In this document: in pieces, positions 47,857 to 64,000 of the stretch
Layout: each line of letters starts with the position of its first letter
Numbering within the stretch: position 1 is the first letter of the stretch
DNA from: Rubripirellula sp.
Lineage (GTDB): Bacteria > Planctomycetota > Planctomycetia > Pirellulales > Pirellulaceae
DNA length: 64,000 nucleotides
Direction of reading: 5' to 3'
Assembly (NCBI GenBank): GCA_965216875.1
Contig: OZ244207.1
Span: 4,896,001-4,960,000, forward strand
Program-made: the position numbers and the translations under genes
Notes under the pieces: model-generated
Database searches by the model: none
Seen by the model: only the letters and a program-made list of their open reading frames with translations
What the model was told of the DNA's origin: nothing

Positions 47857-47945
47857 GGAGCGGTGGCTGAGTGGTCGAAAGCGCCGGTTTGCTAAATCGG
47901 TGAACCGGGAAACCGGTTCCGCAGGTTCGAATCCTGTCCGCTCCG
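47857..47945 (+). tRNA. tRNA-Ser(GCT)
   Basis: GGAGCGG/CCGCTCC acceptor, anticodon loop TT-GCT-AA, long variable arm, GGTTCGAATCC; CCA not encoded. Confidence 0.95.
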
Positions 47946-48103
47946 CTTTGACAACCTACTACGCTTGGATAAGCAAAACAAAAGACAACACCATCGCGAA
48001 TTAGATCCCGATCCAGACAACACCTGAGCCGCTCGCCAAGCTTCACCCGGCGACACATTCGACGGTGTTACAAATCCAATCTGGTTTCGGTTACCGCATG
48101 GTC

Positions 48104-48176
<73 letters not shown>

Positions 48177-48369
48177 CTTCTTTTCTTTCTCGCGGTCGCG
48201 AGTCACCTTCACCATCAAAGTGTCGGTTATCAAAGGCATGCAGAGCGACAAACCGATCCAGTCGCTATAACCGGAACCGACTTTGCGGGCTGCCTTTGCC
48301 CGCTTCAACTTCCACTTGGCAGCGTTCGATTTCCAGAGGTGTGTTCCTCCCTCTCAAGGCGCTGGCTCA

Positions 48370-49692
48370 ATGGGTTTCCTGCATCGCGTTCGACAGCTCG
48401 CTATCGCGATTGCTTTCTGCGCGGTGATCGCTGGGAAAGGCGTCTCGCTGGCCCAATCACCGGCAACAAACGATGCCGGGAACGTCGCTACCAACAACCA
48501 AATGGGTAGCAACTCAAATGGCAACAAGGTACGACAACTCGGCAATGTCCCCGAAGATGTTGGCTACCAACTTCAAGAATCCAACCAGCGGATCGACGCT
48601 CTCTTTCAGCGCGCCCCGCTCGATCCCTTGCACGAGATTTGGGACCGCTTGAACGAGCGAACCAAAACGGGCTGCAACCTCGATATGGGTGTCAACTACA
48701 CCGCAATCTATCAATGGGCCGACACGACCGTTTCAGGGCCGAAGAGTGCCGGAGATGGAGACCTCGATTTCTTTGGCCGTTGGACACCCTTTGGATGCGA
48801 TCGCTGCTCCAATCAAGCAATCGTCTTCACAAGCGAATGGCGTCACAAATACTCACGCATCGCGCCAGACCAGTTGAATACGGGAACGGTTGGTGGAACG
48901 ATCGTCGGCTTTGACGTCCAAGACTTTTCACTTATCCAACTCTACTGGGAATCAGGCAAATACGAGGATGGCTTCATCACGCGCGCGGGCAAGATGGATC
49001 CTGCGTTGATCTACGATGGCGGCCGCTTCGTCAGTTCCAACTACGCGTTTTTCAGCCCCGCCTTTTCCGACACACTTACTGCGGCCTTGCCCGATGCGGG
49101 ACTTGGTATTGCGGGGGCAATCTACCCTACGGACGCCACCTACGTGCTCGGTGGGATCCACGATGCCAACGCCAAACGCAGCACGACTGGCTTCAATACG
49201 TTCTTCGGCGAAGGTGAACTGTTCAGCGCCTTGGAGTTGGGTTGGTATCCCAACGAGGGGAAAGTCGACGAAGGGATGTACCACATCACGTTCTGGCATT
49301 CCGACCCGCGCCGCAAAGCGAACCGCCGTGGCGATCGTGGCATCGCGTTGACAGCCGAACAACAGATCGGATGCGATGGCAAGATTGTTCCATTTCTGCG
49401 TTACTCATACGCCCATCGTGGACTCAACAACGTTCGCCAGAACCTTTCACTTGGCGTTGGCGTCGAAGAGGTCTTTGGCCAGAACTTTGACATCGCTGGC
49501 GTTGCCTGGTCGTGGCAAGAGCCCTCCAACAAAACGCTTCGCGATCAATATGTCTTTGAAACGTTCTATCGCTTTCACCTCACGCCGCACACGCACCTCT
49601 CGCCCGACATCCAAGTGATCATCGACCCTGCTAATGCACCCACCAAGGACTCGGTGACCGTCCTTGGCCTGCGGTTAAGAACGCTCTACTAG
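48370..49692 (+). CDS. Carbohydrate-selective porin (OprB family)
   Basis: Signal peptide; QYVFETFYRFHLT...SPDIQVIIDPA...VLGLRLRTLY beta-barrel terminus. Confidence 0.82.
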   Translation: MGFLHRVRQLAIAIAFCAVIAGKGVSLAQSPATNDAGNVATNNQMGSNSNGNKVRQLGNVPEDVGYQLQESNQRIDALFQRAPLDPLHEIWDRLNERTKTGCNLDMGVNYTAIYQWADTTVSGPKSAGDGDLDFFGRWTPFGCDRCSNQAIVFTSEWRHKYSRIAPDQLNTGTVGGTIVGFDVQDFSLIQLYWESGKYEDGFITRAGKMDPALIYDGGRFVSSNYAFFSPAFSDTLTAALPDAGLGIAGAIYPTDATYVLGGIHDANAKRSTTGFNTFFGEGELFSALELGWYPNEGKVDEGMYHITFWHSDPRRKANRRGDRGIALTAEQQIGCDGKIVPFLRYSYAHRGLNNVRQNLSLGVGVEEVFGQNFDIAGVAWSWQEPSNKTLRDQYVFETFYRFHLTPHTHLSPDIQVIIDPANAPTKDSVTVLGLRLRTLY

Positions 49693-49899
49693 AGACTTTG
49701 CTCGTGCAGTTCCTTACCAGTCGAAAGAGAGACCGAAAGATGAGGGACAGAGAATCGCGAGGGGCCGACGCGTGAAACCAATGAAAGGGACGAAAGTTTC
49801 ACCCAATCGGGTTGAGCGTTCGGAAACTCCGAACGCTTGCCCAAAGCCTTAGAATGGAATTCTCTTCAGCACCAATCGCCCCTCCAGGAGAAACGCAAC

Positions 49900-51144
49900 A
49901 TGCTCCGCAAACTCTTCGCACTCTCCTTGGTCTTGTTTGTCGCCGCTCCGCAATCCTTCGGAGGTGAAGAAAGCAAGACTTGGCCTGCTTCTGACAAAGC
50001 CAAACAGTTTGTTGATGACACGATTGTGATCGGGTTCTTCGCGAGCCCGTGGGGAACGGGCTGGACGAAAGACGAACACTTTCACGATTACCTCAAGCGT
50101 TCGCGTGCCGCTGGCATCACTGGGCATGACATGACGCTGGCCGCTGGCGGTTACACGTTCGATCAGTTTCTAAAAGAGCACCAAAAGTACCGCAACACGA
50201 TGGCTCAAACGCCAGGCAAGTATGCCTTCGTTCGTAATATCCGCGACATCGAACATGCTCACGTGACTGGCAAGACGGCCGTCATTTGGAACTCGCAGAC
50301 CGCGACGATCATCGATGGCGACTTGAACAAGATCGCGACCCTCAAAGAAATGGGCATCGCGAGCATCATCTTGGCTTACAACGATCTGTTCCGCACCGGC
50401 TCGGGTAGTCTTGCCGAATTCAATGGATCAACCGTCGGTGTGACGCCTTGGGGAATCTCGGTCATCGACGAAATGGTCAAGCACCAAATCATCGTGGACC
50501 TCAGCCACATGGGTCCAAAGATGACCATGGGAATCATGGATCACATGGAGAAAAACCATCCTGGCGTACCCGTCATCTTTTCGCATTCACTACCCGCAGG
50601 GCTTTATGGCGAAACCGCCGAAGCGACCGAGCGGGGATGCTATCGCAACATCAGTGATGAAGAAGCCGTTCGCTGTGCCAAGAGTGGCGGGTTTGTCTCA
50701 CCCACATTCACCGAATGGATGTTGGACGGCATCTGGCCGGACGACATCACGCCCCAGCAATGTGCGGACATGATTCACTATTACGTCAAACTGGTCGGGG
50801 TCGATCACGTGGGGATCGCGTCGGACGACATGTTCACAACCAAGCCAACGATGAACTTCGTCAAGGCCAACCCCAACCTCTACGCCGATGGCGGCTACAT
50901 GGTCAACGCCTTCAATCGAGGCGCCGATGGCTGCGGTGAACTTGCAAAGATTCTCCCCGCCGTGACCGACGAACTTTGGAAACGAGGGTACAGCAACGAA
51001 GATCTGGAAAAGATCTACGGAGGCAACAAGATGCGCGTCTATCGAATGGTTTGGGAGAACGTCGCTCCGAAAGACGAGCTGATCGATGTGAAGAAGCGTC
51101 GAGAGATGGTCAACGAGCTGCGTCAAAAGTGGCAAAGCCGGTAA
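49900..51144 (+). CDS. Secreted membrane-dipeptidase (M19)-like amidohydrolase
   Basis: GVTPWG..VIDEM...[40 protein letters not shown]. Confidence 0.82.
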
Positions 51145-51317
51145 GGATGACGCATTCGGTCATTTCATTCGACGAGAATCGCATCACCCGTATCAATCTG
51201 CGACGGCCGTGACCTGGCCCCGCCGAGCGTGCTGGTAAGTGGCCTCGCAATATCGACACAACTAGGTTGCGCAACTGAAAACTCAACCGACCGTCGCTTG
51301 TTTCCGACACCAGAAAT

Positions 51318-52604
51318 ATGAAAGTGTCGATTGGATTTCGGAAACTCATAATCGCTTGGGCGATCATCGCCTTGGCATCGCTGCTGCCTGAGCAATCGGC
51401 TTGGTCGCAAACAGTCGCTGCTCCGACCGACACACAAACATCAATCTACGACGACGTTTTGCAGTTCGGTGGTCCCAGCAGTGTCGCTGGCCAGCTTGCT
51501 GAAGACACCACCGGCGCCCCCGAGTTTCGTCTGCAGCGACTTCAAGACCTTGCCGCACCGTGGTACGACTTCAAAGAGCGACTTAATCAACGCGCGGGAC
51601 TGCAGTTTGGAATCGACGACTCGATTCTGTATCAAGTTGCAACCGATAGCCTCGGCGAGACGGACGCCGCAAGTGGGTTGGTACGCGTTTTTGGTCAATG
51701 GGAACTTGTCGGACGCGGCAGTGGCAATCCTGGCTTGCTCGTGTTCAAAGGTGAAGACCGACATCGAATCGGCACCTCGTTGACTCCTTTTGATCTCGGC
51801 TTCGAAGCAGGGTCGGTGGTTCCAACGGGCACGTTCTTTTCCCAATTCAATTTCTCTGTGACGAACCTGTTTTGGAAGCAGTACCTTTTTGATCGCCAAA
51901 TGGCCATCATCGTCGGCCGCATCGATGTGACCGACTTCATCGACATCTATGCGATGACCAACCCGTTGACCCACTTTTTGAATCTCTCGTTCTCGCTCAA
52001 TCCAACGATCGCCGCACCGAACCAGGGGCTCGGGGTGGCCGCCGGTGCGATGTTGACCGAGCACCTCTACGCGCAAGGTGGGTTTAGCGATGCCAACGGC
52101 CAACCAACACGAGCCGGCTTTGACACCTTCTTTGACGATGCCGAGTTCTTTAGCTACGTCGAGTTCGGTGTGACTTCGGCGCAAGATCGGATCCACCTCG
52201 ACAACGTTCACTTGACGCTTTGGCACACCGATGCGCGAACGGATGCCGGAACACCGTCAAGCTGGGGCGTCGCCTTCACAGCCCAAGAATTCGTTTGCGA
52301 CAAGTGGTTGCCGTTTTTCCGAGCCGGGTACAGCGACGGCGGCGCCGCGCTCATGCAAGCCACGGTGTCGACGGGATTGGGCTACCAACGCGAAAATCGA
52401 GATGTCGCCGCGTTCGGATTCAGCTGGGGAAAACCGGCCACCGGAGCGCTGCGAGATCAATACACGCTCGAGACCTTTTATCGGTTTCAGATGACGGAGT
52501 ACCTGGCGGTCACGCCCGACGTTCAACTGGTCATCGACCCAGCTCTCAATTCAAGCGTCGATGCGTTAGCCTTCTTCGGTCTCCGACTTCGCACCGCGTT
52601 CTAG
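51318..52604 (+). CDS. Carbohydrate-selective porin (OprB family)
   Basis: Paralog of 48370..49692; LRDQYTLETFYRFQ...TPDVQLVIDPA...FGLRLRTAF. Confidence 0.82.
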   Translation: MKVSIGFRKLIIAWAIIALASLLPEQSAWSQTVAAPTDTQTSIYDDVLQFGGPSSVAGQLAEDTTGAPEFRLQRLQDLAAPWYDFKERLNQRAGLQFGIDDSILYQVATDSLGETDAASGLVRVFGQWELVGRGSGNPGLLVFKGEDRHRIGTSLTPFDLGFEAGSVVPTGTFFSQFNFSVTNLFWKQYLFDRQMAIIVGRIDVTDFIDIYAMTNPLTHFLNLSFSLNPTIAAPNQGLGVAAGAMLTEHLYAQGGFSDANGQPTRAGFDTFFDDAEFFSYVEFGVTSAQDRIHLDNVHLTLWHTDARTDAGTPSSWGVAFTAQEFVCDKWLPFFRAGYSDGGAALMQATVSTGLGYQRENRDVAAFGFSWGKPATGALRDQYTLETFYRFQMTEYLAVTPDVQLVIDPALNSSVDALAFFGLRLRTAF

Positions 52605-52847
52605 CTCACCCCATCACTCGAGCAACGCTTCATCCCTGCTGCCTCCTCTCACACACCTCTTCTCTCACGCATCCTCTTACGCCCGCTTTTTTCTGTCCCC
52701 CATCTTTCTGTCCCTCTTCCATCCTTCTTTCTGCCCACCTTTTTTCTGCCATTCTTTTCTCCTCCTAGTCCTGCGGACTGATTGCCGTCGTGTCGCTATC
52801 CCATTGGAAACGGGTTTCAACACTCTGATGGAAAGGGGAAATGGGCG

Positions 52848-53246
52848 ATGGCTTACGTGTTCTTGGCGACCACGTTGCTTTTTGCTGGCTCGACCACTTT
52901 CCTTGCCATTGCGTTGTGTCGTCGCTCAACCGGGCTGAGAAAGACGAGCCAGAAGCAAGAGATGGCCGACCGGCAACTTCGTGCAACTCGACTTGAGTAC
53001 GAGAAATACGCGGCTCATACCGGACGGCTGAAATCGATCACCGAGCTCGACCGCTACATCGCTTCGCTGAAGGAGCTGGTCGGTCGGTTTGAATCCATTC
53101 AGTCTCTCGACCATCTCCTCGTTCAGCGGAAGTCGGACCTACAGCAAGCGGAAAAGCTACTGGACGAGCTTCGTGGAGATGCGATTTGTTGCAATGATCA
53201 CACAAAGGGGCTGCCAAATGGCGGAGTTCGATCGCATTCAGACTGA
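52848..53246 (+). CDS. Small membrane-anchored coiled-coil protein
   Basis: N-terminal TM then an imperfect internal duplication GRLKSITELDRYI / GRFESIQSLDHLL. Confidence 0.5.
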   Translation: MAYVFLATTLLFAGSTTFLAIALCRRSTGLRKTSQKQEMADRQLRATRLEYEKYAAHTGRLKSITELDRYIASLKELVGRFESIQSLDHLLVQRKSDLQQAEKLLDELRGDAICCNDHTKGLPNGGVRSHSD

Positions 53247-53417
53247 TGACAAACTTGCCGATCCGACTCCCGACTGGGAGGGGTTTCGTCGGTCGAATTG
53301 GGTTGGTCTGCAAAGAAGTTTTTTGACTTGACGAACCGGTATAAACCGACCAACGTATACCTCAGCTGTCCTTGATTGGACAAAAGGCCACCTTCCCCAC
53401 TTGCTTTTAGCGTCTTC

Positions 53418-53843
53418 ATGGCCCCGGCAGCCCGCCACATTATTGTCAGCCTCCTGTGCGGCATGATCGCTTTCGGTCATGCTCCCGCTTGGCTGCATGT
53501 TGCAGGTTGTGAGCACGGAAATCACCTCGTCGAGGCTTCGACCTATCGCCCACAAGACGACGCTTGCTGTTGCCACCATGGCCATGACCACCAAGCCTCG
53601 GAAGCGGAAGAGGGTGAGCCGAATCCAGCGTCCCGGGGTCATCAACATCCTCATGGGCACGATTCAGACACCTGCGCAATTTGCCAATCGCTTGTAGCTC
53701 CGACTGGCGTCAAGCTTGATCTTGATCCCGTCGTGCATGATGAAGGCTTGGTTGCGGTTGCTGCGATTGCTGAACTTTCAGCACCGGCCCCAACACTTCG
53801 CTCCATCCCTCAGCCTCGTGGACCGCCTGCGCTCAACGCGTAG
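53418..53843 (+). CDS. DUF2946-like His/Cys-rich protein with CxxC and C-terminal RGPP
   Basis: TM segment, CCCHHGHDH, HQHPHGHDSDTCAICQ, ...PQPRGPPALNA-stop. Confidence 0.75.
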   Translation: MAPAARHIIVSLLCGMIAFGHAPAWLHVAGCEHGNHLVEASTYRPQDDACCCHHGHDHQASEAEEGEPNPASRGHQHPHGHDSDTCAICQSLVAPTGVKLDLDPVVHDEGLVAVAAIAELSAPAPTLRSIPQPRGPPALNA

Positions 53844-54260
53844 AGCCTCTGGTCACGATCGATGAGCTCCCTTGATGCGTTAAAGCGAAAGGGTGCTCAC
53901 CGACTTTGCCTGGACTATTGAACCAATTGGTCCCGCCTCGCGCGGTTCTGTTGGTCACGGTCCGACCAAACCCGATCAGCTGTTCCCGCGTGGCGGGGCT
54001 CTTTTGCCAACCTGAAGCTTGAATCACACGCTTCAGTTCGGTGTTGTGGGGCGTGCGATCCGTCGGATGAGACGTTCGCAAAAAGAAGGAAACAATTCGA
54101 GGGTGGGTGATCAATGTGTCATAGCTTGTTGCTTCGACATGGCGAATCATCCGAATCGCTTTCGACTTCGCGCAGTCTTTGCTGGCCGCTGCTGCGTGGG
54201 GAACTTGGTCAGGCGGCTAATTCAACTCCAACTCGTTTTTCCCATAAGTGAGAAACAACT

Positions 54261-54608
54261 ATGCGTAAGATGCTTCGCAACAAGAAGGGTCAAGGTCTTG
54301 TCGAGTACGGTCTGATCATCGCCGGTGTTGCACTGATTTGTGCAGCTGCCGTTTCGGTTTTCGGACACAAAACCAGCGATTTGATCGGTGCCGTCGCAAC
54401 GATCCTGCCTGGTGCCCATGCAGATGACAACGGCCCAGTTGTTAGCGGCAAGCTGATCGAAACCACCGGTGCTGACACCGGCGCAATCGCTCTGGACGCT
54501 GCGACCATCCTTGCAAACACCGACACCGGTCGTTTGGACAACAACGTCTTCGGTGCAGCAACTGCTGCTGGTGGCGACGGATTCGGCGGCTTGATCCTCG
54601 AGCCGTAA
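54261..54608 (+). CDS. flp: Flp family type IVb/c pilin (extended, 115 aa)
   Basis: KKG|QGLVEYGLIIAGVALI prepilin motif with E+5/Y+6. Confidence 0.9.
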   Translation: MRKMLRNKKGQGLVEYGLIIAGVALICAAAVSVFGHKTSDLIGAVATILPGAHADDNGPVVSGKLIETTGADTGAIALDAATILANTDTGRLDNNVFGAATAAGGDGFGGLILEP

Positions 54609-54630
54609 GCCTGACCCATTTGCCAAGATT

Positions 54631-54674
54631 CGCAAGCCACGCACGGGGGACAACCACCGTGCGTGGCGATTGCG
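54631..54674 (+). terminator. Stable hairpin after flp (mRNA stabiliser or partial terminator)
   Basis: GCCACGCACGG-N10-CCGTGCGTGGC perfect 11-bp stem, no strong U-tract. Confidence 0.6.
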
Positions 54675-54698
54675 TTTCTGGCGAAGCGTTTTCAGTCA

Positions 54699-55124
54699 AT
54701 GATGTTCTACGCGATTTCGGTCATCGTTCTGCTACTTCTTGCGTTTGCCACCTTCTGTGACTTTCGCACGAGGGAGATCCCGGATTGGATCTCGATTGCG
54801 ATCGCATTGGTCGCGATCGTCAGCTCCGCGATGGGGTACCTCGGGCTCTCCTTGCCATTGGCCCTCACCGGTGGCGTTCTTGGGCTCCTGGTCGGCTATC
54901 TCCTGTTTCGATATGCCCAACTTGGCGGGGGTGACGCGAAACTGATTGCAGCACTTGGACTGGTTGTAGGGCCCGTCGGGATCCTCATTGTCCTGTTTGG
55001 AATGGCCCTTGCTGGCGGCGTTTTGTCGTTGGTTGCGATGCTTCGCGGTCAACGTGACTACGCCTATGTCCCAGCCATCACCGTCGGTTTTGTAGGATAC
55101 ATCGGTCTGGTTTCCCAGATATGA
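54699..55124 (+). CDS. cpaA: Prepilin peptidase A24 (CpaA/TadV)
   Basis: CDFRTREIPD and LGGGDAKL aspartate motifs; YVPAI. Confidence 0.9.
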   Translation: MMFYAISVIVLLLLAFATFCDFRTREIPDWISIAIALVAIVSSAMGYLGLSLPLALTGGVLGLLVGYLLFRYAQLGGGDAKLIAALGLVVGPVGILIVLFGMALAGGVLSLVAMLRGQRDYAYVPAITVGFVGYIGLVSQI

Positions 55125-55630
55125 ATTCGCTTCCGTTCTCCAGATGGATGACTAAGATGTCAAAGAACCTCATTGCTTTGCCGATCGCCTGCATCACCCT
55201 CGTCGCAACCGCCTTGGCTCCGACCGCCAACGCGGACGACCACGCTGGCATGAAAAAGGAGCACCAAGCGGCTCATCGGCAACACGATCAGTGGGCTGCC
55301 GAGCATGCCAAATGGCGTGCTGAACATATGCGTGCCCTGGCACTGATTGCAAAATTACAGGCACGTATCTACGAGCATGAGGCAGAGCTGATTGAGCATG
55401 ACGAAGAGATTCGCGCTCATGAAGATCATGCCATGCACCATGGCGAAGAGATCGAAGCTCACGAAAAGCACGGCCACGATCACGATCACAACGCGCTCGA
55501 GAAAGAGCACGCTGATTTTAAGGCGAAGCATAAGGCAATGGCTCAAAAACATGACTCCGTCAAATCGGGTCACGAAGAGCTACACCAGTTGCTAAGCAAG
55601 TTGACGAAGTTCTTGAAGGCCGAGAAATGA
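55121..55630 (+). CDS. Secreted His-rich helical protein
   Basis: Signal peptide ending ANA|DD (likely start 55157); 22 His; ATGA overlaps with neighbours. Confidence 0.8.
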   Translation: MNSLPFSRWMTKMSKNLIALPIACITLVATALAPTANADDHAGMKKEHQAAHRQHDQWAAEHAKWRAEHMRALALIAKLQARIYEHEAELIEHDEEIRAHEDHAMHHGEEIEAHEKHGHDHDHNALEKEHADFKAKHKAMAQKHDSVKSGHEELHQLLSKLTKFLKAEK

Positions 55631-55911
55631 ACCCCCGCTTTGGACGCATCCGTCGCGGTCAATCGCTTGTCGAATTCGCCGTCGTTGCTCTCGTCTTGTA
55701 CATGATCCTGGCAGCGATCTTGACATTCGGACATGCGATCTATGCCGCGCAAGGCTTACAAACCGCGGCGGATCTGGCGGCCAAAGAAGACACACATGCT
55801 CCGCTGCCTACGGATGATTCAATCGAATCGGCGGCAAGCTCTCAGGGCAACGCGACGGCGTCTTATGTCACAACGATGGTCGCCGCGAAACACCAACGCT
55901 CCTATCACTAA
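55627..55911 (+). CDS. TadE-like minor pilin (short, possibly truncated)
   Basis: RRG|QSLVEFAVVALVLYMILAAILTFG...LQTAADLAAKE. Confidence 0.75.
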   Translation: MNPRFGRIRRGQSLVEFAVVALVLYMILAAILTFGHAIYAAQGLQTAADLAAKEDTHAPLPTDDSIESAASSQGNATASYVTTMVAAKHQRSYH

Positions 55912-55982
55912 CGATTCAATTCACGCGGCATGGAGGCGAGCACCGTTCACAAGGAAGTAGTCAAACAAAAACGATCAGTACG

Positions 55983-58508
55983 ATGGCACAACGAAACTAC
56001 CGCAACTCTCGTCGCTCGCGATTGCCAGGTCTGCTACTTGCCGGCGGCGGCTTGTTTGCGCTAACCCTGTTCGGAATTGTCGGAACACTCTGGCTTGCGG
56101 GCGTTCCCCTAAACCCATTCGCTGCATCGCAAAAGGAAGATCCGTACATGGTTCGGATCCCAATCAATGCGCGACCGATTCCCGCTTACAGTCGCGTCGA
56201 TCGAACGCACTTGCTCAATCCCGCAGACCGAAGCTTGATGTTCCAACGTATTCCACCGCGGGCAGCCCTGGGGATGGCAGTCGTTGGTGTCGACCAAAGC
56301 GGATCTCATGTCGAAGATCGTGTTGTTGATGTAAAAAACGTCAATGACGAAGTGGTCTTTGTCGTTGCTGGCGGTCGCGAAGTGCGTCAAGCACAAACCT
56401 TCACCCTTGGTGGCGCCATTCTGAACATCAATGCGATCATTGGTCGAGTTGTAAAAGCAGACAAACGTGCCGGTCTCGGATTCCAAGAAAGCACGTTCTT
56501 TCCGCAAGGCACACCCGAGGGACTCGCCGGTGCGACCCCAGAAGGAATGCGCGCGATCACGCTCGATGCAACTCGCTTGACCGGTGTCCACTCACTCAAC
56601 GCGGGCGACATGATCGACTTGTTGGCCAGTGTTCCAACAGATGACGTTGATAACGACGACGAGTCAAACGAAAGCGAAGTCGAACTGCTCGCCCAAAACG
56701 CTCACGTGCTACGTCCGGTCTATGTACGCAACGAAGTGACTTCATCGGCATCGCTGATGAACGGACAAACAACGCAAAACCTGCCCAAGTACGAAGTGGC
56801 GATTGCCGTGGCGGCAGACGATGTGATTCGATTGCAGACGGCATTGAACCAAAGTTTGTCGATCACTTGTGTCGCCCACTCCATGAAACCAACGGACGGC
56901 AGCGAACAAAAGCCACCAGCCCCGGATCATCTCGTTCGTGTACCTGTCACGGTGCGCCCGATTCTGGCTTATCAAGTTGTCTCGCGCGATGCGTTTGTGA
57001 GCCCTGCCACTCGTTCACTAAAGACTGCAACGATTCCGCGTCAATTGGCCGATCGACTCGGTGCGATCACATCCGTCGATCAGGCGATTGGTGCGATCAC
57101 CCGCCAAGACATCCCCGCCGGTCGCTATCTCCGCCAATCGGACCTGCTCAAAGGGCCTCCCACAAACCAGCAATCGGCCGACAACATGGTTGAATCCAGC
57201 TTGGACGGATTCAACCAATCTGCCGACGGCAAACGATTTGTCGCAATGGTCCAGCAACCACAACAGCCGGCACCGGCAGCCACGGCGGTTGGCGACCGAC
57301 CTGCGATCAGCCGCTTCATCCCCGCCGGTCGCACCGCGTTTGCGATCCCACTCAATCGTGTTTACGGCGCCGAGCATCTTCAAATCGGCGATTCGATCGA
57401 TCTTCTGGCGAGCTTTTCTCTCGAACGACTACGAGATGAAGAAGAAACGGAAACGCGCCCCGACGGGACGGTCATCGTTCGCAAGTCCGAATCACTGACT
57501 CCCCGCACGACGCGTCGTAGCTGGGAAGAATCCTTTGGCAATCGAGCCGAACCTTGGTTTGTGGCAACCGGCGCGATCGTCGTCGCACCCGTCGGTTTTC
57601 CGGCACCGGCGGCCGCACTTCGTGCGATCGAGTCGGATACGGAAGTGTCGCGACCCTCCCAGCGAGACAAAACCTTTGAAGGCCCACCCGTCATCATTGC
57701 GGTAGAAAACCGCGATGTTGAAACCGTCGCCACCGCACTGGCGACGCGTGATGCACTGTTCACGGTTGCGTTCCATGCGGACGAGAACAACGTCGCGAGG
57801 CCGCAAGACAAGACCATCGCCATCGCCTCGGAACCGATGGATGCGTACAGCCCACTCAGTGAAACCTCGTGGCAAGGTAACCGCCGCCGTGTCGCAACGC
57901 GCGTCGTCTCGTCAGGCAACCCGCGATTCCAAGACGCTTTGACGCCCCAACAGTTGCAGAGCTATTTCGGCCGCACGTTGAGTGTCGAAAAGAACAACGG
58001 CGACTTCTTTACACCCGCTGACTTTATGCCTGAAGGGGCAGGGCAGGGGATCGGAGCCTCCGTTCGCCAAGGGTACACCTTGCTACCCGTAGCAGATCGC
58101 GATATTGAAGGAATTGATTCGTTCATAAGAAACGACACCGTCACGATCATGATCCGTGCCGTTTTCAAATCGCAACTCGCCCGCCAAGTCAATGCCGAAG
58201 ATGGCGTCGCCGCCTCTTTTGTGGTCGCCGAAACGGTCCGAGTCGTTCGTGAATCGGTTGGTGGCCAATCGATCATCGAAGTTCAAAACAAAGACCTCGC
58301 AAAACTTCAAGCTGCGATGGCACGATCGCTCACCGATCGAGAAGAAATGCGAGATCGATCGCACTTGGTCGCCGTCGGTTCCGTTCCCACCAACGACACC
58401 ACAAGTTCCGATTCGAAGATCGCTCCGTTTGACCCACTGACTGGCGTCAAAACGACTCAGATCATCATCGGTGGCGAGCGGAGCGTGAAGGTCTTTGGAG
58501 GTCAATGA
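55983..58508 (+). CDS. cpaB: CpaB/RcpC-like pilus assembly protein with three tandem SAF-RcpC units
   Basis: N-terminal TM; ARPIPAY/VRPILAY/SEPMDAY and PEGMRAITL..GDMIDLL / PAGRTAFAI..GDSIDLL / RQGYTLLPV..NDTVTIM repeats. Confidence 0.75.
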   Translation: MAQRNYRNSRRSRLPGLLLAGGGLFALTLFGIVGTLWLAGVPLNPFAASQKEDPYMVRIPINARPIPAYSRVDRTHLLNPADRSLMFQRIPPRAALGMAVVGVDQSGSHVEDRVVDVKNVNDEVVFVVAGGREVRQAQTFTLGGAILNINAIIGRVVKADKRAGLGFQESTFFPQGTPEGLAGATPEGMRAITLDATRLTGVHSLNAGDMIDLLASVPTDDVDNDDESNESEVELLAQNAHVLRPVYVRNEVTSSASLMNGQTTQNLPKYEVAIAVAADDVIRLQTALNQSLSITCVAHSMKPTDGSEQKPPAPDHLVRVPVTVRPILAYQVVSRDAFVSPATRSLKTATIPRQLADRLGAITSVDQAIGAITRQDIPAGRYLRQSDLLKGPPTNQQSADNMVESSLDGFNQSADGKRFVAMVQQPQQPAPAATAVGDRPAISRFIPAGRTAFAIPLNRVYGAEHLQIGDSIDLLASFSLERLRDEEETETRPDGTVIVRKSESLTPRTTRRSWEESFGNRAEPWFVATGAIVVAPVGFPAPAAALRAIESDTEVSRPSQRDKTFEGPPVIIAVENRDVETVATALATRDALFTVAFHADENNVARPQDKTIAIASEPMDAYSPLSETSWQGNRRRVATRVVSSGNPRFQDALTPQQLQSYFGRTLSVEKNNGDFFTPADFMPEGAGQGIGASVRQGYTLLPVADRDIEGIDSFIRNDTVTIMIRAVFKSQLARQVNAEDGVAASFVVAETVRVVRESVGGQSIIEVQNKDLAKLQAAMARSLTDREEMRDRSHLVAVGSVPTNDTTSSDSKIAPFDPLTGVKTTQIIIGGERSVKVFGGQ

Positions 58509-58631
58509 TGATGAGTGCATCGAATCATCCGAGACGCATTCACCAGTCTGTGATCGAACTCCGAATTCGGCGGGCAACACCGAATCCACTTTTTGATTTC
58601 CGCCACGTGAACGTTCTTGAAGGAGCAGAGA

Positions 58632-59447
58632 ATGAATAAGCGCCGCAAAGGCCAAGCTTTGGTTGAGTTCGCTCTTGTTGGTTTTGCGTTAACGGCTCTC
58701 CTAATGGGCATTATCGGTATCGGTACGATGCTGATTCAGTCGACGGCTACCGCGTCGGCTTCGATTTCGGCGAGCATGATTTTTGACCTTCAGGTGGAAA
58801 AAGAAGACGTCAACAACGTCGAAGAGGTCTATGCCGCACTTCGAACGCTCAACCTCTACAACGATGCTCACTTGATTCTGGAGCCAGCCGATTACTTTGC
58901 CGAGACGTTCAACGGTGGTCCACTGGCAAGCCTTAACCGGCGGATGTTGCCGCTGTACCAATTCGATCGAGACCGAAACGTCTACCGGTACCCTGGGGCA
59001 CCTGCGTCGTACAACAACGGAAATGCAGTTTTAATCCCCCGCACGGCTCGTGACACAAGCGAGACCATCACGGCTTGGTATCGACCCGTTGAAATTGAAT
59101 TCGATCCGAACGTCACCGATCAGACCGTTTTGAACGTAACACTCAACATGGCGTCGCAACCCGCGACCCTGCTTTCCTATCCGACCGACGCACTGGGCAG
59201 GACGGTTGGGCTCCCACTGGTTGCCGATGATGGGACGGTCAACGTTCAAGCCAACCTCCCGGATGGATTTAATTTGCAGGGAGCGGGCGTGGTGAACTCG
59301 CCCTTCGCATCGACCAATCGGGGGCAATTCGGACTTGGCGAAATGAAGAACTTCGGCACGAATGTTCGGCCGTTTCGACGTGTTTTCTTTCACCGAGGGA
59401 CGTTCCGACTGAAGCCTGTTGAGGAACAAAATGGAACTCAACCTTAG
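58632..59447 (+). CDS. TadE-like minor pilin
   Basis: RRKG|QALVEFALVGFALTALLMG; AAGGAG SD. Confidence 0.8.
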   Translation: MNKRRKGQALVEFALVGFALTALLMGIIGIGTMLIQSTATASASISASMIFDLQVEKEDVNNVEEVYAALRTLNLYNDAHLILEPADYFAETFNGGPLASLNRRMLPLYQFDRDRNVYRYPGAPASYNNGNAVLIPRTARDTSETITAWYRPVEIEFDPNVTDQTVLNVTLNMASQPATLLSYPTDALGRTVGLPLVADDGTVNVQANLPDGFNLQGAGVVNSPFASTNRGQFGLGEMKNFGTNVRPFRRVFFHRGTFRLKPVEEQNGTQP

Positions 59448-59559
59448 CGGTCATTCACCCTTTTTGCGGGCACCGCATCCATCGCTCCGAGATCAGGCGC
59501 GAGCTCAAAACAACGATATCGACGGTGGCCTCTTGGTTGCCGTGAACAGGTGAAGAGAG

Positions 59560-60816
59560 ATGTCAATCACGGCAAACATTTTGGTCTTTAGTGCGGACGC
59601 GAAGATCGCCGAAGAAGCGAACTTGGCGTTCAACGCGCTGCCTCAAACATCGGCTCGCTATCGAATCGTTGAAAACACAACGGCCTTGTTCGAAGCCCTT
59701 CGCAACCGACCTGTGTCACTGGTGCTTGCGGAGTTTCCCGAGGATCCGCGTGAGCTTCTTGAATGGGTACGACAGATTCAATCAGTCTCACCCAAAACGA
59801 AGATCGCCGCGATCTTGCCGCAAGAGGGCTTTTCCGAACAAAACAACGAATCGGCGCTGTTGATCGATGCGATGCGGTGTGGCGTTTGCGACTTCCTGAA
59901 ACGCCCCTTCTCGACAGCAGATCTGCAGCGGCTAATTCAGATCGACGCGGACAATCAAACCACCGCCGCACAGGCGGGCTCACCTGGCGCTGGCCGCGTG
60001 GTTTCGTTCATCAGCAATAAAGGAGGCGTCGGCAAATCGACCCTGGCAACGAACACGGGTGTCGCGATTGCAAGACGCGGTCAACAAAGTGTTCTGTTGA
60101 TCGACGGCTCGATTCAAATGGGCGTCGCCGCAGCGCTACTTGACCTGCAACCCGAAGCCACTCTGACCGACGTCGCGCGCGAAGTCGATCGGCTTGACCC
60201 CACGATGATTCGACAAACGGCCGCCGTCCATTCAAGCGGGCTGCACTTGATTGCCGCGCCCGCCGATGCCGTCGAAGCGATGGAAATCGACGACCTGTTG
60301 ATGGCTCGCATTTTGACAGTCGCACGGCAAACCTATGACGTCGTGATTGTCGACACCTTTCCAATGTTCGACCGCGTCGTGATCGCGGCTCTCGACCTAA
60401 GCGATCGTGTGTACGTGGTCCTCGAAAACGTCGTCCCCACTTTGCTTGGTGGCGTCAAGCTGCTTAGCGTTCTCGATCGAATCGGCTATCCGGCTGCCCG
60501 ACAATCGATCGTGCTGAACCGTCAACAACGTGTCACCGGAAGCTTGTCGGTCGATGATGTTGCCGATCGGATGGGACGCGACATTGATCATGTCTTGCCT
60601 TTTGACAAAAAGGTGGTCGCTGCTGCCAACTGTGGCGTCCCCATCGCGATGGCTCCGATCCGCCTGGGCGGGTTCAGCCGAGCGCTTGCGGGACTCGCCG
60701 ATGATGTTGCAGGCACGGTCGATTCCACGGCATCGCGCGTGGAAATGAACGAATCGAGCCTGCTTGCACCGGACGAATCGCCATTGGAAGCCACCTCGTT
60801 GGAGGACAACCAGTGA
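59560..60816 (+). CDS. cpaE: CpaE/TadZ (receiver-like + MinD-like ATPase)
   Basis: AMRCGVCDFL receiver-like region; NKGGVGKST; YDVVIVDT; AANCGVP. Confidence 0.9.
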   Translation: MSITANILVFSADAKIAEEANLAFNALPQTSARYRIVENTTALFEALRNRPVSLVLAEFPEDPRELLEWVRQIQSVSPKTKIAAILPQEGFSEQNNESALLIDAMRCGVCDFLKRPFSTADLQRLIQIDADNQTTAAQAGSPGAGRVVSFISNKGGVGKSTLATNTGVAIARRGQQSVLLIDGSIQMGVAAALLDLQPEATLTDVAREVDRLDPTMIRQTAAVHSSGLHLIAAPADAVEAMEIDDLLMARILTVARQTYDVVIVDTFPMFDRVVIAALDLSDRVYVVLENVVPTLLGGVKLLSVLDRIGYPAARQSIVLNRQQRVTGSLSVDDVADRMGRDIDHVLPFDKKVVAAANCGVPIAMAPIRLGGFSRALAGLADDVAGTVDSTASRVEMNESSLLAPDESPLEATSLEDNQ

Positions 60817-62306
60817 CCGATTCGAATCGTGATCCCAAATCAACTCGCTCGGCTCGCGAACTGTTTGCACACGCAAGTTTGCGTTTGCCAGAAAACCGAG
60901 TCCGACGAGAAACGAGTCGCTCGGGAAGCAAACCGTTTTCAGACTCCTCGTCGCTTGACGCGCGACCAGGCAGCGCATCGTTTGCATCGGTCAAAACGGC
61001 GATGCACACGCAACTGCTTGAAGATCTCGACCGTCGCGATCGCATCACCGCAACCGAAGAAGAATTGACGGACCTGGTGCGTGACTTTGTTGCGGATGCT
61101 CTTGAAACTCAAGACTGGCCGCTCAACGACCTTGAACGTCGACAACTCGTTGACGATTTGATCGAAGAAACAATCGGCGTCGGTCCGCTCGCTCCACTGC
61201 TTGCCGACCCGGCCGTGACCGACATTTTGGTCAATGGCCCCTACACAGTATTCGTCGAACGGTTCGGACAACTCGAAGAAACCGATGTGCGTTTTCGGGA
61301 TGACGAACACCTTGTGCGCATCATTGGCCGCATCGCCGCTCGCGTCGGTCGCCGAGTCGATGAAAGCTCGCCGATGGTCGACGCTCGATTGCCCGATGGC
61401 AGCCGCGTCAACGCCACGCTTCCGCCGGTCACAATTGATGGGCCAACACTTTCGATTCGGCGTTTTGGTCGACGGCGATTGCGCTGCGATGACCTGATGC
61501 GATTGGGAATGTTCTCGCCTGCCATGCACACGTTCTTGCAGCTCGCCATTCGCGGCCGCGTGAACATGATCGTATCGGGCGGAACGGGCTCCGGAAAATC
61601 GACTCTCTTGGGCGCCATCGCGGAAGCCATCTCGGATAGCGAACGGATCATCACGATCGAAGACGCTGCCGAATTGCAACTCGACCAGCGTCATGTCGTA
61701 CGAATGGAAACGCGTCCCCCCAACATCGAAGGGCAAGGGCAAATCGTTGCGCGCGACCTCGTCGTCAACGCGCTTCGGATGCGACCGGACCGGATCATCG
61801 TGGGTGAAGTTCGCGCCGCCGAAGCACTCGACATGATGCAAGCGATGAACACTGGACATGACGGGTCGCTGACGACGATTCATGCCAACAGCCCTCGCGA
61901 TGCGGTCTCGCGACTCGAAACCATGGTGCTGATGGCTGGGCTGGAACTTCCCAGCCGCGCGATTCGCGAACAAGCTGTTTCGGCGATCGACATCATTGTG
62001 CAAGTTCGCCGCTACGAAGATGGCGTTCGACGCGTCCAATCGGTCTCGGAACTCGTCGGCATGGAAGGCGACACTCCGCAACTTCAAGAGATCTTTCGCT
62101 TTGTCTCGACGGGCAAGACCAAGCGACGTATCTCTGGTGAATACGTGGCAACGGGCGTGGTCCCGCGAATCGCTACACGGCTGCGTGAAAACCATGTCGA
62201 TGTGCCCATGGAATTGTTCCAGTCCGGTCCACGGTCCTTAGCTGGCACAGGTTTCGACCCAGACGATCGAGGCGTCGATGATTCGGAGCGCGACGTTCGA
62301 TGGTGA
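60813..62306 (+). CDS. cpaF: CpaF/TadA pilus ATPase
   Basis: [61 protein letters not shown]. Confidence 0.96.
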
Positions 62307-63190
62307 TCCTAAGTGTGATCGCACTCTGGTCTGTCATCGGATTGGTTGCGATCGGAACCTACCGACTGCACGTCAGTCGCCAACAAACGCTCGATCGATT
62401 CGTCGAAGCGACAGAGAGTTGGGCCGGCGGCGCTGGCACAAACGCGACCGCAAGAGAAGAGGAAGCGCCAACAGCATATTCCGCGCGTCGGCTATCTCGG
62501 CCCTGGATCTGGGCCCCTTGGGCAATCGGCGTCGGCATCGGTGTTTCCGCGTGGTGGATCTTTGGCTGGCCAGGCCAATACGTCTTGGCCATCGGCGCGG
62601 TCGTATCACTTCTGCTTAGCCAGGTTGAAGGTTTCTTATACATCCGTCACATCGCCAAACTCGAACGGCAGCTCGCCGACGCAATCGATATCATGGTCGG
62701 CGCGGTCAGTGCGGGTGCGGCTGTAGGACCAGCGATCGATTCAGCAACCGTTGAAACCGACAAACCTCTGAAACCTTACCTGCAAGAACTCTCGGGTAGG
62801 ATCCGCTTAGGCGATGACCCGATTGCTGTCTTCCGTTCGCTTGCCGATCGCGTCCCACTCGAAACGTTCATGCTCTTTTCGGCGTCGATGTCCGTTCACT
62901 ATGAAGTGGGCGGACGCTTGGCGCCAACGCTCGCCACGGTCGGGCGCACAATTCGCGACCGAATTGAAATCGCAAGACGCATCCAATCGAACATCGCGCA
63001 GTCACAATTCAGCACCATTGCCATCTTGGGTTTGATCTATCTGATCGCCGTGATCGTCTGGCGCAACGGCCCCGAGCCGATGGAGGATTTTGTGACGTCG
63101 ACGGTCGGTAGCTGGGCTGTTGCCGGATCGATCGTGTTTCAAGCGGTAGGAATCGTTTGGATGAACCTCATTTCGAAACCAAAGTTCTAG
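62300..63190 (+). CDS. tadB: TadB (T2SSF family)
   Basis: QLADAIDIMVGAVSAG, EVGGRLAPTL...IRDR; follows cpaF. Confidence 0.9.
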   Translation: MVILSVIALWSVIGLVAIGTYRLHVSRQQTLDRFVEATESWAGGAGTNATAREEEAPTAYSARRLSRPWIWAPWAIGVGIGVSAWWIFGWPGQYVLAIGAVVSLLLSQVEGFLYIRHIAKLERQLADAIDIMVGAVSAGAAVGPAIDSATVETDKPLKPYLQELSGRIRLGDDPIAVFRSLADRVPLETFMLFSASMSVHYEVGGRLAPTLATVGRTIRDRIEIARRIQSNIAQSQFSTIAILGLIYLIAVIVWRNGPEPMEDFVTSTVGSWAVAGSIVFQAVGIVWMNLISKPKF

Positions 63191-63205
63191 ATCGGATCCG
63201 TTTCG

Positions 63206-64000
63206 GTGACACTCCTGACCCAGTTATTGCTATTCGCCGCAGTGATGATCACGCTGCTGTGCCTTGCGGCATGGGCGGTGATTCATTTACTGGGGCAACA
63301 ACGCACTTTGGACCGTTGGTTTCGCGACCACGACTCAAATCCGTCCGACAACGGAAACGAATCACCTCGTGGCTGGATCGGCAGATGGCTTTTTCTAGCT
63401 GGATACCGAACACAAATAGCACCGATCGTCTTCGTGATCACAACGATCGCGTGCATTGTCATCGGCATCGGATCGGCATCGCTTTTTGTCGCCTCAGGAC
63501 TGCAATCGGTGATGGAAGAGACCGTCGTGCTCGTACCAGGTGGTGTGGGCGAGACCTTCTTGCCCGTCGTCTGGGTCGCGCCTTGGATCATCGCCATCTT
63601 GCTGATTTGCTTGCCGCTGACGATCGTGCGTTCAGCGCGACGTCGACGCGTCGCAATGATCGAACAAGACCTGCCGCTGGCGATGGAATTGATGGCGACC
63701 TTGAGCGAAGCGGGACTCAGTTTCGATTCGGCTTTGCTGCGGGTTTTGAAAACGCGTTTGTCAGGCCGACCACTGGCTGACGAACTTCAGATCTATCAGG
63801 CCGATCTGCTTTCGGGCAGACCACGAATTGAATCCCTTCGCCGCTTGAGTAGTCGCATTCGCGTCGGCTCCGTATCGATTCTTGTCTCAGCGCTCGTGCA
63901 AGCGGAACAAATGGGGATGGGTATCTCTCGTGTCTTGCGAACACAAGCCGATGATATTCGTGCCCGCCGAAGAGAAAAGGCGATCGCGTTTGCCAACTCG
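63206..64000 (+). CDS. tadC: TadC (T2SSF family), runs off the window
   Basis: Read by hand from GTG 63206: ...IEQDLPLAMELMATLSEAGLSFDSAL...ALVQAEQMGMGISRVLRTQADDIRARRREKA. Confidence 0.88.
   Translation, partial: MTLLTQLLLFAAVMITLLCLAAWAVIHLLGQQRTLDRWFRDHDSNPSDNGNESPRGWIGRWLFLAGYRTQIAPIVFVITTIACIVIGIGSASLFVASGLQSVMEETVVLVPGGVGETFLPVVWVAPWIIAILLICLPLTIVRSARRRRVAMIEQDLPLAMELMATLSEAGLSFDSALLRVLKTRLSGRPLADELQIYQADLLSGRPRIESLRRLSSRIRVGSVSILVSALVQAEQMGMGISRVLRTQADDIRARRREKAIAFANS

Follow-up and report, generated by a model that had tools for sequence, protein, structure and literature searches.

What is a short histidine- and cysteine-rich open reading frame (ORF) doing at the head of an entire pilus operon? 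The question is raised by a stretch of Rubripirellula sp. DNA (64,000 nt of contig OZ244207.1, positions 4,896,001 to 4,960,000, hereafter the window), in which such a leader ORF, or upstream ORF (uORF), precedes flp and the other genes of a tight adherence (Tad) pilus operon. The anatomy and the conservation of the arrangement are firm: a predicted promoter, a small hairpin (L1), a leader ORF with a CxxC pair and an RGPP arrest-type motif, a long hairpin (L2) and the target gene follow one another, and we propose that a cassette of this order would constitute a portable metal-limitation switch. Anatomy, conservation, hairpin covariation, compensated loop complementarity and zinc-gene context were computed directly. 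An earlier note on this DNA had described the leader and the pilus genes and suggested a CruR-like metal control; to this we add two RNA hairpins, complementary to each other and placed on either side of the uORF, and signs that the present copy is partly decayed.

The leader encodes 141 residues (with an alternative TTG start at 53376), including 14 histidines and 7 cysteines; its anatomy, its motifs and the 417 nt between its stop and the flp ATG were borne out. The Pfam family DUF2946 (PF11162), to which it had been likened, matches it with an E-value of 0.005 and 18 bits, below the gathering score of 23.7, but 16 of 18 aligned relatives match DUF2946 at E≤0.1, and a relative in locus L175 (loci carry three-digit numbers) exceeds the gathering score (23.9 bits). 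Seven positions are invariant across the 18 sequences: G20, H27, C86, C89, R134, P136, and P137. In the whole genome (8.26 Mb, ORFs of at least 60 residues), just four ORFs show CxxC(41–47)R[AG]PP near their stop, and two of these precede flp.

The nearest known kin is CruR (Bp2923), the DUF2946 leader of bfrG in Bordetella pertussis, where 45 residues lie between CxxC and the motif, a spacing conserved within 1–2 residues and required for regulation (Roy et al. 2022, PMC9426467). Here there are 44 intervening residues, and 43–44 in the 25 relatives found ahead of flp (see below), all within 45 ± 2, so that the proposed CruR-like uORF fits the family. With CruR it shares, besides a CxxC about 45 residues before R[AG]PP, an export signal, a long intergenic region, a C>G stretch, the presence of Rho and a place at the operon head (PMC9426467). 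The corresponding features are a hydrophobic stretch (residues 8–24, mean Kyte-Doolittle value 1.85) that on hydropathy only qualifies as an export signal or transmembrane segment, a C>G stretch (C38/G23) at the uORF end, a Rho gene in the genome, and a leader co-oriented with the operon behind a conserved promoter, which would be co-transcribed across the gap to flp. A strict promoter scan of 52600–56100 returned no site and the predicted promoter thus rests on conservation, its spacing being kept ahead of the relatives' uORFs; terminator-like sites numbered 5 against 3.9 expected. Two DNA contig sets, possibly the source, agree letter for letter; two further contig sets, presumed to be from RNA, likewise differ nowhere and carry no information about transcription.

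A search with a Flp alignment, using one genome per species, gave 236 confirmed loci, 80 of which were analysed. Of these, 60 are close, with titles that mostly name Planctomycetota and in three cases Nitrospira, and 20 are distant; 12 ordinary planctomycete Tad loci served as an extra control. An ORF with CxxC(47–48)R[AG]PP ends 187–531 nt upstream of flp in 25/60 close loci (25/54 if only loci with 900 nt or more of upstream sequence are counted) and in none of the 20 distant ones. No such leader heads the operon in the 12 ordinary Tad loci, in which the sole match to the pattern (L183) heads a DUF1559 gene. By this comparison, set beforehand in the earlier note, the order uORF–flp–Tad is conserved far beyond chance.

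The L2 hairpin begins 85 nt past the leader stop, about 255 nt ahead of flp, and carries at its apex the near-invariant sequence GGUCCGACCA (53959–53968). Nine copies folded singly gave z-scores of −2.2 to −7.0 and a common apical sequence, and a covariance model built from 14 close copies and run on 71 sources gave 27 matches, of which one is a chance match; the present copy scores 83.7 bits. Both partners vary at 22 of 26 pairs in the model-fitted alignment, where 87.8% of cells pair; 0/500 shuffles reach this, and slid controls give 36–46%. RNAalifold recovered the stem on the 14 close sequences and after model alignment. Rfam 15 holds no L2 family (best E-value in the window 1.1), and in six related loci it matched only a tRNA and one internal ribosome entry site (E 0.08). 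A second L2 model found the hairpin in 7/150 genomes of the class, 18/150 of the order and 2/150 of the phylum, each count including this genome; the weak matches in L125, L129, and L130, together with L041, are treated as chance. Among loci found by L2 alone, 21/24 have a uORF upstream (L107 repeats a training locus), and downstream of these RNA-found cassettes stand flp (2), a DUF1559-type prepilin N-terminus (13, judged by eye) or genes of unclear kind (6).

L1 is the candidate partner. Just past the promoter and upstream of the ORF, the reverse complement of the L2 loop is found in 32 of 50 cassettes (score at least 16), as against a mean of 0.13 (maximum 1) for shuffled loops and 4 for the same orientation. 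Six core positions pair in 34–36 of 36 leaders at a laxer threshold, with compensatory changes at a core pair in L121 (G-C to A-U), at loop position 3 in L114 and L120 and at position 12 in L112; position 11 is U-A in 15 cases and C-G in 11, and mismatches occur at position 3 (7/36) and position 1 (8/36). A GGCC leader variant (L026, L033, L048, L110) is a mismatch, not a G-U wobble. The flanks of L1 enclose the core with 5.07 pairs, as against 3.00 ± 0.36. A third and smaller hairpin, L3, may also pair with the L2 loop (duplex −18 kcal/mol), tentatively so: TGGTCAG occurs within 130 nt of flp in 12/22 hairpin loci and in 2/36 others, a difference confounded by kinship.

Three other leaders of this genome pair with the loop at −23 to −29 kcal/mol, those of cpaC, of a second cassette and of a boxed periplasmic gene (C1:2487063). 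The second cassette (C1:6184661–6187963, minus strand, L091) comprises a uORF, intact L1 and L2 and an A24_N membrane protein, followed by a second uORF without hairpin and an orphan flp 88% identical to that of the window. At C1:1132854–1141802 (minus strand, L093), a uORF heads a run of DUF58, transglutaminase, MoxR, His-rich lipoprotein, ArsP_1 permease, and DUF1559 genes, and operons of this type stand divergent from the Tad cassette in L013, L017, L018, L025, and L037. Six uORF-less loci (L025, L032, L034, L044, L045, L060) have GGAAC-N16/17-CGGCA(C), resembling a promoter for an extracytoplasmic function (ECF) sigma factor, upstream of flp, and in L032 an ECF sigma gene adjoins flp. No broad regulon in trans emerged from the pattern counts: the promoter plus L1 pattern occurs in 44/150 genomes vs. 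28/150 in the opposite orientation, 7 of 8 distinct sites in five chosen genomes are the cassette or an adjoining divergent uORF, and with one mismatch allowed, this genome has 31 vs. 30 intergenic sites.

Which metal would such a leader sense? The Pfam scan covered 132 neighbours (118 of a 274-gene non-core pick plus 14 core or own-genome genes) and revealed COG0523, DUF1826, FolE2, ZnuA/ABC-3, S14/S18, Fur, carbonic anhydrase, NicO, and MerC-like families, the Nitrospira S14 and S18 being devoid of CxxC pairs. COG0523, FolE2, ZnuA, and Cys-less S14/S18 are zinc-starvation markers. Zinc starvation induces COG0523 and FolE2 (PMC10563805) and is marked by ribosomal paralogues (PMC6103462). Zinc markers occur in 13/60 close loci vs. 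0/20 distant and 1/12 ordinary Tad loci, and COG0523 in 8/60 close loci, all without a uORF ahead of flp. Exact TGCAA-N5-TTGCA boxes, which we take to be Zur-like, are present in 14/60 close loci and in neither control (0/20 and 0/12); allowing up to one mismatch, they lie less than 300 nt from flp in 8/30 loci without a uORF and 1/26 with one, against a genome background of 81/5688 genes (1.4%), and none occurs in 52600–54300 of the window. Zinc-starvation genes and Zur-like boxes in leaderless relatives thus point to zinc limitation, not copper, and the metal sensed would most likely be zinc. Most simply, the same pilus would be tied to low zinc by either of two routes, Zur-type repression or the leader cassette. 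The metal link suggested in the earlier note therefore stands through the neighbourhood and the Zur-like control in relatives, not through the His-rich gene, and copper, the signal in the CruR precedent that the note had cited, gives way to zinc.

The same architecture could answer to copper or to nickel/cobalt, and its polarity might be reversed, the metal causing the stall as it does in CutF. CruR, whose CxxC and spacing are matched here, is specific for Cu and only moderately affected by Zn (PMC9426467); among CutF-like proteins, Cu specificity is stated not to be general (bioRxiv 2022.11.11.516240); and NicO, MerC-like, and ArsP_1 permease genes lie nearby. Against copper, multicopper oxidase, PCuAC, SCO, and CopC are absent among the 132 neighbours, where a single Cu2_monoox_C domain is the only copper-handling family found, and the markers that are present are classic zinc-starvation genes; we consider a metal other than zinc unlikely.

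Several loci illustrate these surroundings. Two of the 16 exact boxes of this genome adjoin its two Fur genes, in a COG0523 island and a FolE2/NicO island, which are likely zinc-starvation islands: C1:8260577–8264335 holds Fur and COG0523, and 4026371–4034868 holds FolE2, NicO, MerC-like, DUF1559, ArsR, and Fur genes (L193, L194, and L094), and each island has an exact box. At C1:2485732–2487172 (minus strand, L092), a 443-residue exported protein of no Pfam family has a promoter in which a perfect L1 stands together with an exact Zur-like box. In L029–L031, titled Nitrospira, the neighbours of this Tad subfamily are Cys-less S14/S18, COG0523, DUF1826 and a two-component pair of the LytTR type, and the ribosomal genes have a box upstream. 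In L038 and L046 a Fur-family gene, in frame with flp by ORF calling, lies directly upstream of it, with carbonic anhydrase nearby.

Put together, these elements suggest the following switch. When the metal is scarce, the ribosome would stall at RGPP and transcription or translation would run on into flp-tad, as in the polarity of CruR; when the metal occupies the nascent His/Cys2 site, the ribosome would be released, and on the naked leader the L2 loop could pair with L1, as a kissing loop growing to an 11–14-bp duplex. This pairing, together with Rho or an RNase, would turn the operon off, and the pilus, with its long His/Asp-conserved pilin, would be part of a low-zinc programme. L2 lies too far from the stall site for a stalled ribosome to unfold it directly; this distance and the lack of a consistent U-tract point to a loop-presenting scaffold rather than an intrinsic terminator. 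As a whole, with its stalling, direction, metal, pairing and pilus function, we hold this model to be about evenly balanced between right and wrong.

Several observations weigh against it. The loci are kin and so not independent. L2 is undetectable in 6/25 uORF-flp loci, begins anywhere from 38 to 416 nt past the uORF stop and has a weak or absent U-tract; its covariation count derives from a structure-fitted alignment that includes the chance match, and with a plain MAFFT alignment of 24 hairpins RNAalifold found no long stem. A strong L1 is absent in 18/50 cassettes, and the L1 of this copy is degenerate (score 13, free energy −10). Cognate L1/L2 duplexes are more stable than permuted ones (−22.1 vs. 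−19.5 ± 0.4 kcal/mol; 0/1000), a biased test since leaders were picked by the match to their own loop. The box was presumed to be Zur-like from its context, its motif not being printed in PMC10563805 or PMC6103462, and both the box pattern and the marker queries were chosen after viewing the same loci.

The genes downstream, identified with Pfam and NCBIfam (table 1), form a Tad (type IVc) pilus operon of the cpaA-F/tadBC kind. It goes on beyond the window with DUF192, secretin, lipoprotein, and tetratricopeptide repeat (TPR) protein genes, which completes the core set of Flp, A24 peptidase, CpaB, secretin, CpaE, CpaF, TadB, and TadC, although the minor pilins are altered (see below). In L001 (5660–6274), a 204-residue ORF between DUF192 and secretin has no Pfam match at E≤0.001 and presumably resembles a transposase. 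Upstream, at 48283–52604 of the window and past a tRNA-like stretch near 47900–48000, the gene for an exported M19 dipeptidase lies between two genes for OprB porins.

Table 1. Features of the leader cassette and the Tad operon in the window.
Feature	Position	Strand	Remark
Predicted sigma70-like promoter, −35 TTGACG, 17 nt, −10 CAACGT	53328..53356	+	conservation
L1, promoter-proximal 5-bp hairpin	53367..53382	+	fold −8.3 kcal/mol
DUF2946-like leader ORF, TM/signal, His/Cys region, CxxC, RGPP arrest-type motif	53418..53843	+	
CxxC (CAIC), 44 residues ahead of RGPP	53673..53684	+	
RGPP motif, four codons ahead of leader stop	53817..53828	+	
L2, long irregular hairpin, ~26 bp, ~78 nt	53929..54006	+	fold z −4.2
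L3, smaller hairpin ~45 nt ahead of flp, partial L2-loop complement	54185..54217	+	
Long Flp-type pilin, ~103 aa mature, conserved His/Asp	54261..54608	+	class III signal
CpaA/TadV prepilin peptidase (A24)	54663..55124	+	
Exported His-rich helical-hairpin protein, 22 His in 160 aa	55148..55630	+	no Pfam family
Truncated TadE pseudopilin, N-terminal ~70 aa only	55627..55911	+	
CpaB/RcpC with SAF repeats	55983..58508	+	
Divergent TadE-like protein at TadG position	58617..59447	+	
CpaE/TadZ	59560..60816	+	
CpaF/TadA ATPase	60813..62306	+	
TadB (T2SSF)	62300..63190	+	
TadC (T2SSF), continues beyond window end	63206..64000	+	

The pilin differs from that of other Tad systems in its length and its invariant His/Asp residues, and in being sited in zinc-starvation islands. 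In the mature protein H26 is conserved in 41/41 sequences, D30 in 40/41, H43 in 38/41, and D46 in 37/41, a pattern that would fit metal binding. The solved Flp pilins that it matched have 45 residues (E 0.05–0.16), and its predicted model is too poor for use (predicted local distance difference test, pLDDT, 55). The His-rich protein, which the earlier note had taken as the pointer to a role in metal handling, is encoded in only 5/60 close loci and is thus an occasional passenger, not a core part. Outside the operon its gene adjoins COG0523 (L032; L175, found independently). Its predicted model has two long helices (pLDDT 82.5), with nothing but generic coiled coils in a fold search (none at E≤0.001) and atlas matches all below 0.9. 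About 14 histidines are invariant across 7 sequences; a word search found one relative and a profile 266, and five weak homologues in other families sit in unrelated contexts.

The gene order given in the earlier note agrees with Pfam and NCBIfam, except that the first TadE is truncated and the second "tadE" is a divergent protein where relatives have TadG/Tad. The first TadE has 94 residues and aligns only to residues 5–72 of a 307-residue orthologue (family median 351); the second has no tblastn match with the TadG of the orthologue. The L1 loop here is a degenerate complement of the L2 loop, with one A-C mismatch and one G-U pair and a duplex of −10.2 kcal/mol, against about −21 in intact relatives. 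This copy therefore looks partly decayed, which raises the possibility that the cassette works in relatives and that the present copy is no longer a functional switch or pilus, as the mismatched L1, the truncated TadE, the replaced TadG and the orphan second flp elsewhere in the genome would suggest. On the other hand, the uORF motifs, L2, L3 and all core Tad genes are intact and L1 retains a 5-bp stem, which makes such a loss of function rather improbable.

The occurrence of L1 at promoters without a hairpin in cis leaves room for a DNA-binding factor or for action in trans. The 10-mer might be the DNA operator of a transcription factor and the L2 stem an unrelated pause or processing hairpin: the sequence is a near-palindrome that resembles GntR/FadR-type sites, L1 sits 2–15 nt past the −10 box, a typical repressor position, it recurs at hairpin-less promoters, namely those of divergent uORF operons (L134 and L138), in L155/L156 and in cpaC leaders, and joint changes at both sites could follow an altered specificity of the factor. 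We find this quite unlikely, because context sets the orientation (sense for the hairpin loop, antisense for the leaders); a covarying stem rich in G-U carries the site at its apex in every case; only 9/32 leaders and 7/50 loops keep the dyad partner of the invariant base, the centre base being C in 49/50; the L1 arms differ in sequence yet stay paired; and no GntR gene is found among the 132 scanned neighbours, a subset of the 274 picked genes. It is very improbable that the uORF is instead an ApdA/ApdP-like secretion or insertion monitor tuning prepilin supply, with disulfide-bonded or structural Cys/His. In favour of such a monitor, the cassettes almost always head genes for type IV prepilin-type proteins or, in one case, a prepilin-peptidase-like gene, and sec genes are known to have RAPP/RGPP peptides ahead of them (PMC12992588), but the fixed CxxC spacing, the DUF2946 similarity and the Zur-like boxes that take its place in sister loci speak against it.

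Among known systems, CruR differs in its target, a TonB receptor instead of a Tad pilus operon, and in its metal, copper where the present context indicates zinc; the leader described here further has an extra His-rich region with an invariant His, and the complementary L1/L2 hairpin pair, which is not described for CruR in the text examined (PMC9426467). CutF-cutO of Rhodobacter capsulatus also has an exported DUF2946-type leader with a Cys motif, a Pro-rich tail and a stem-loop (bioRxiv 2022.11.11.516240, 2025.02.05.636593), but in CutF the gap is short and the stem-loop masks the following ribosome-binding site, whereas L2 is distant and shows a conserved loop. The leader-peptide attenuator RNA rnTrpL of Sinorhizobium meliloti, which pairs with another operon of the same pathway (PMC6614838), offers a model for L2 acting in trans on the separate cpaC or divergent leaders, although it senses an amino acid through a 14-residue peptide without an arrest motif or a loop–loop pair.

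A survey of RAPP/RGPP uORFs (EMBO J 2025, PMC12992588) found DUF1559 enriched behind RAPP uORFs (112 vs. 68 AAPP). Flp or pilin is absent from its 30-row RAPP table, while its RGPP table and large supplements may list such genes. A literature search whose scope left out most subscription papers found no Tad/Flp pilus under zinc limitation or Zur, and the texts and supplements searched contain neither a Flp/Tad target nor a loop–loop RNA for arrest leaders, although the CutF data file may list such genes. Arrest-type leaders before DUF1559 genes are thus already known, whereas the Flp/Tad target and the RNA element are undescribed in these sources.

A bolder version of the model, to which we give limited credence, would have a dedicated zinc-scavenging Tad pilus, built by Planctomycetes and a few other lineages, whose pilin, lined with His/Asp, and exported His-rich helper capture the metal, and a long-range kissing loop between the two hairpins, gated by the metal-sensing arrest peptide, whose released attenuator RNA acts in trans. 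Its targets would be the secretin operon with its separate transcript, the divergent permease/DUF1559 operon and the Zur-boxed periplasmic gene, all with a complementary loop in their leaders. With the proposed switch, the reach of metal-sensing arrest peptides would no longer end at transporters but take in an entire machine for surface filaments, and a structured RNA pair absent from Rfam may explain how such leaders act over long gaps. It would also link zinc limitation to a Tad subfamily widespread among planctomycetes and to prepilin genes of the DUF1559 kind and, if confirmed, open a first way into the function of one type of pilus and of a very large protein family that still lacks an explanation.

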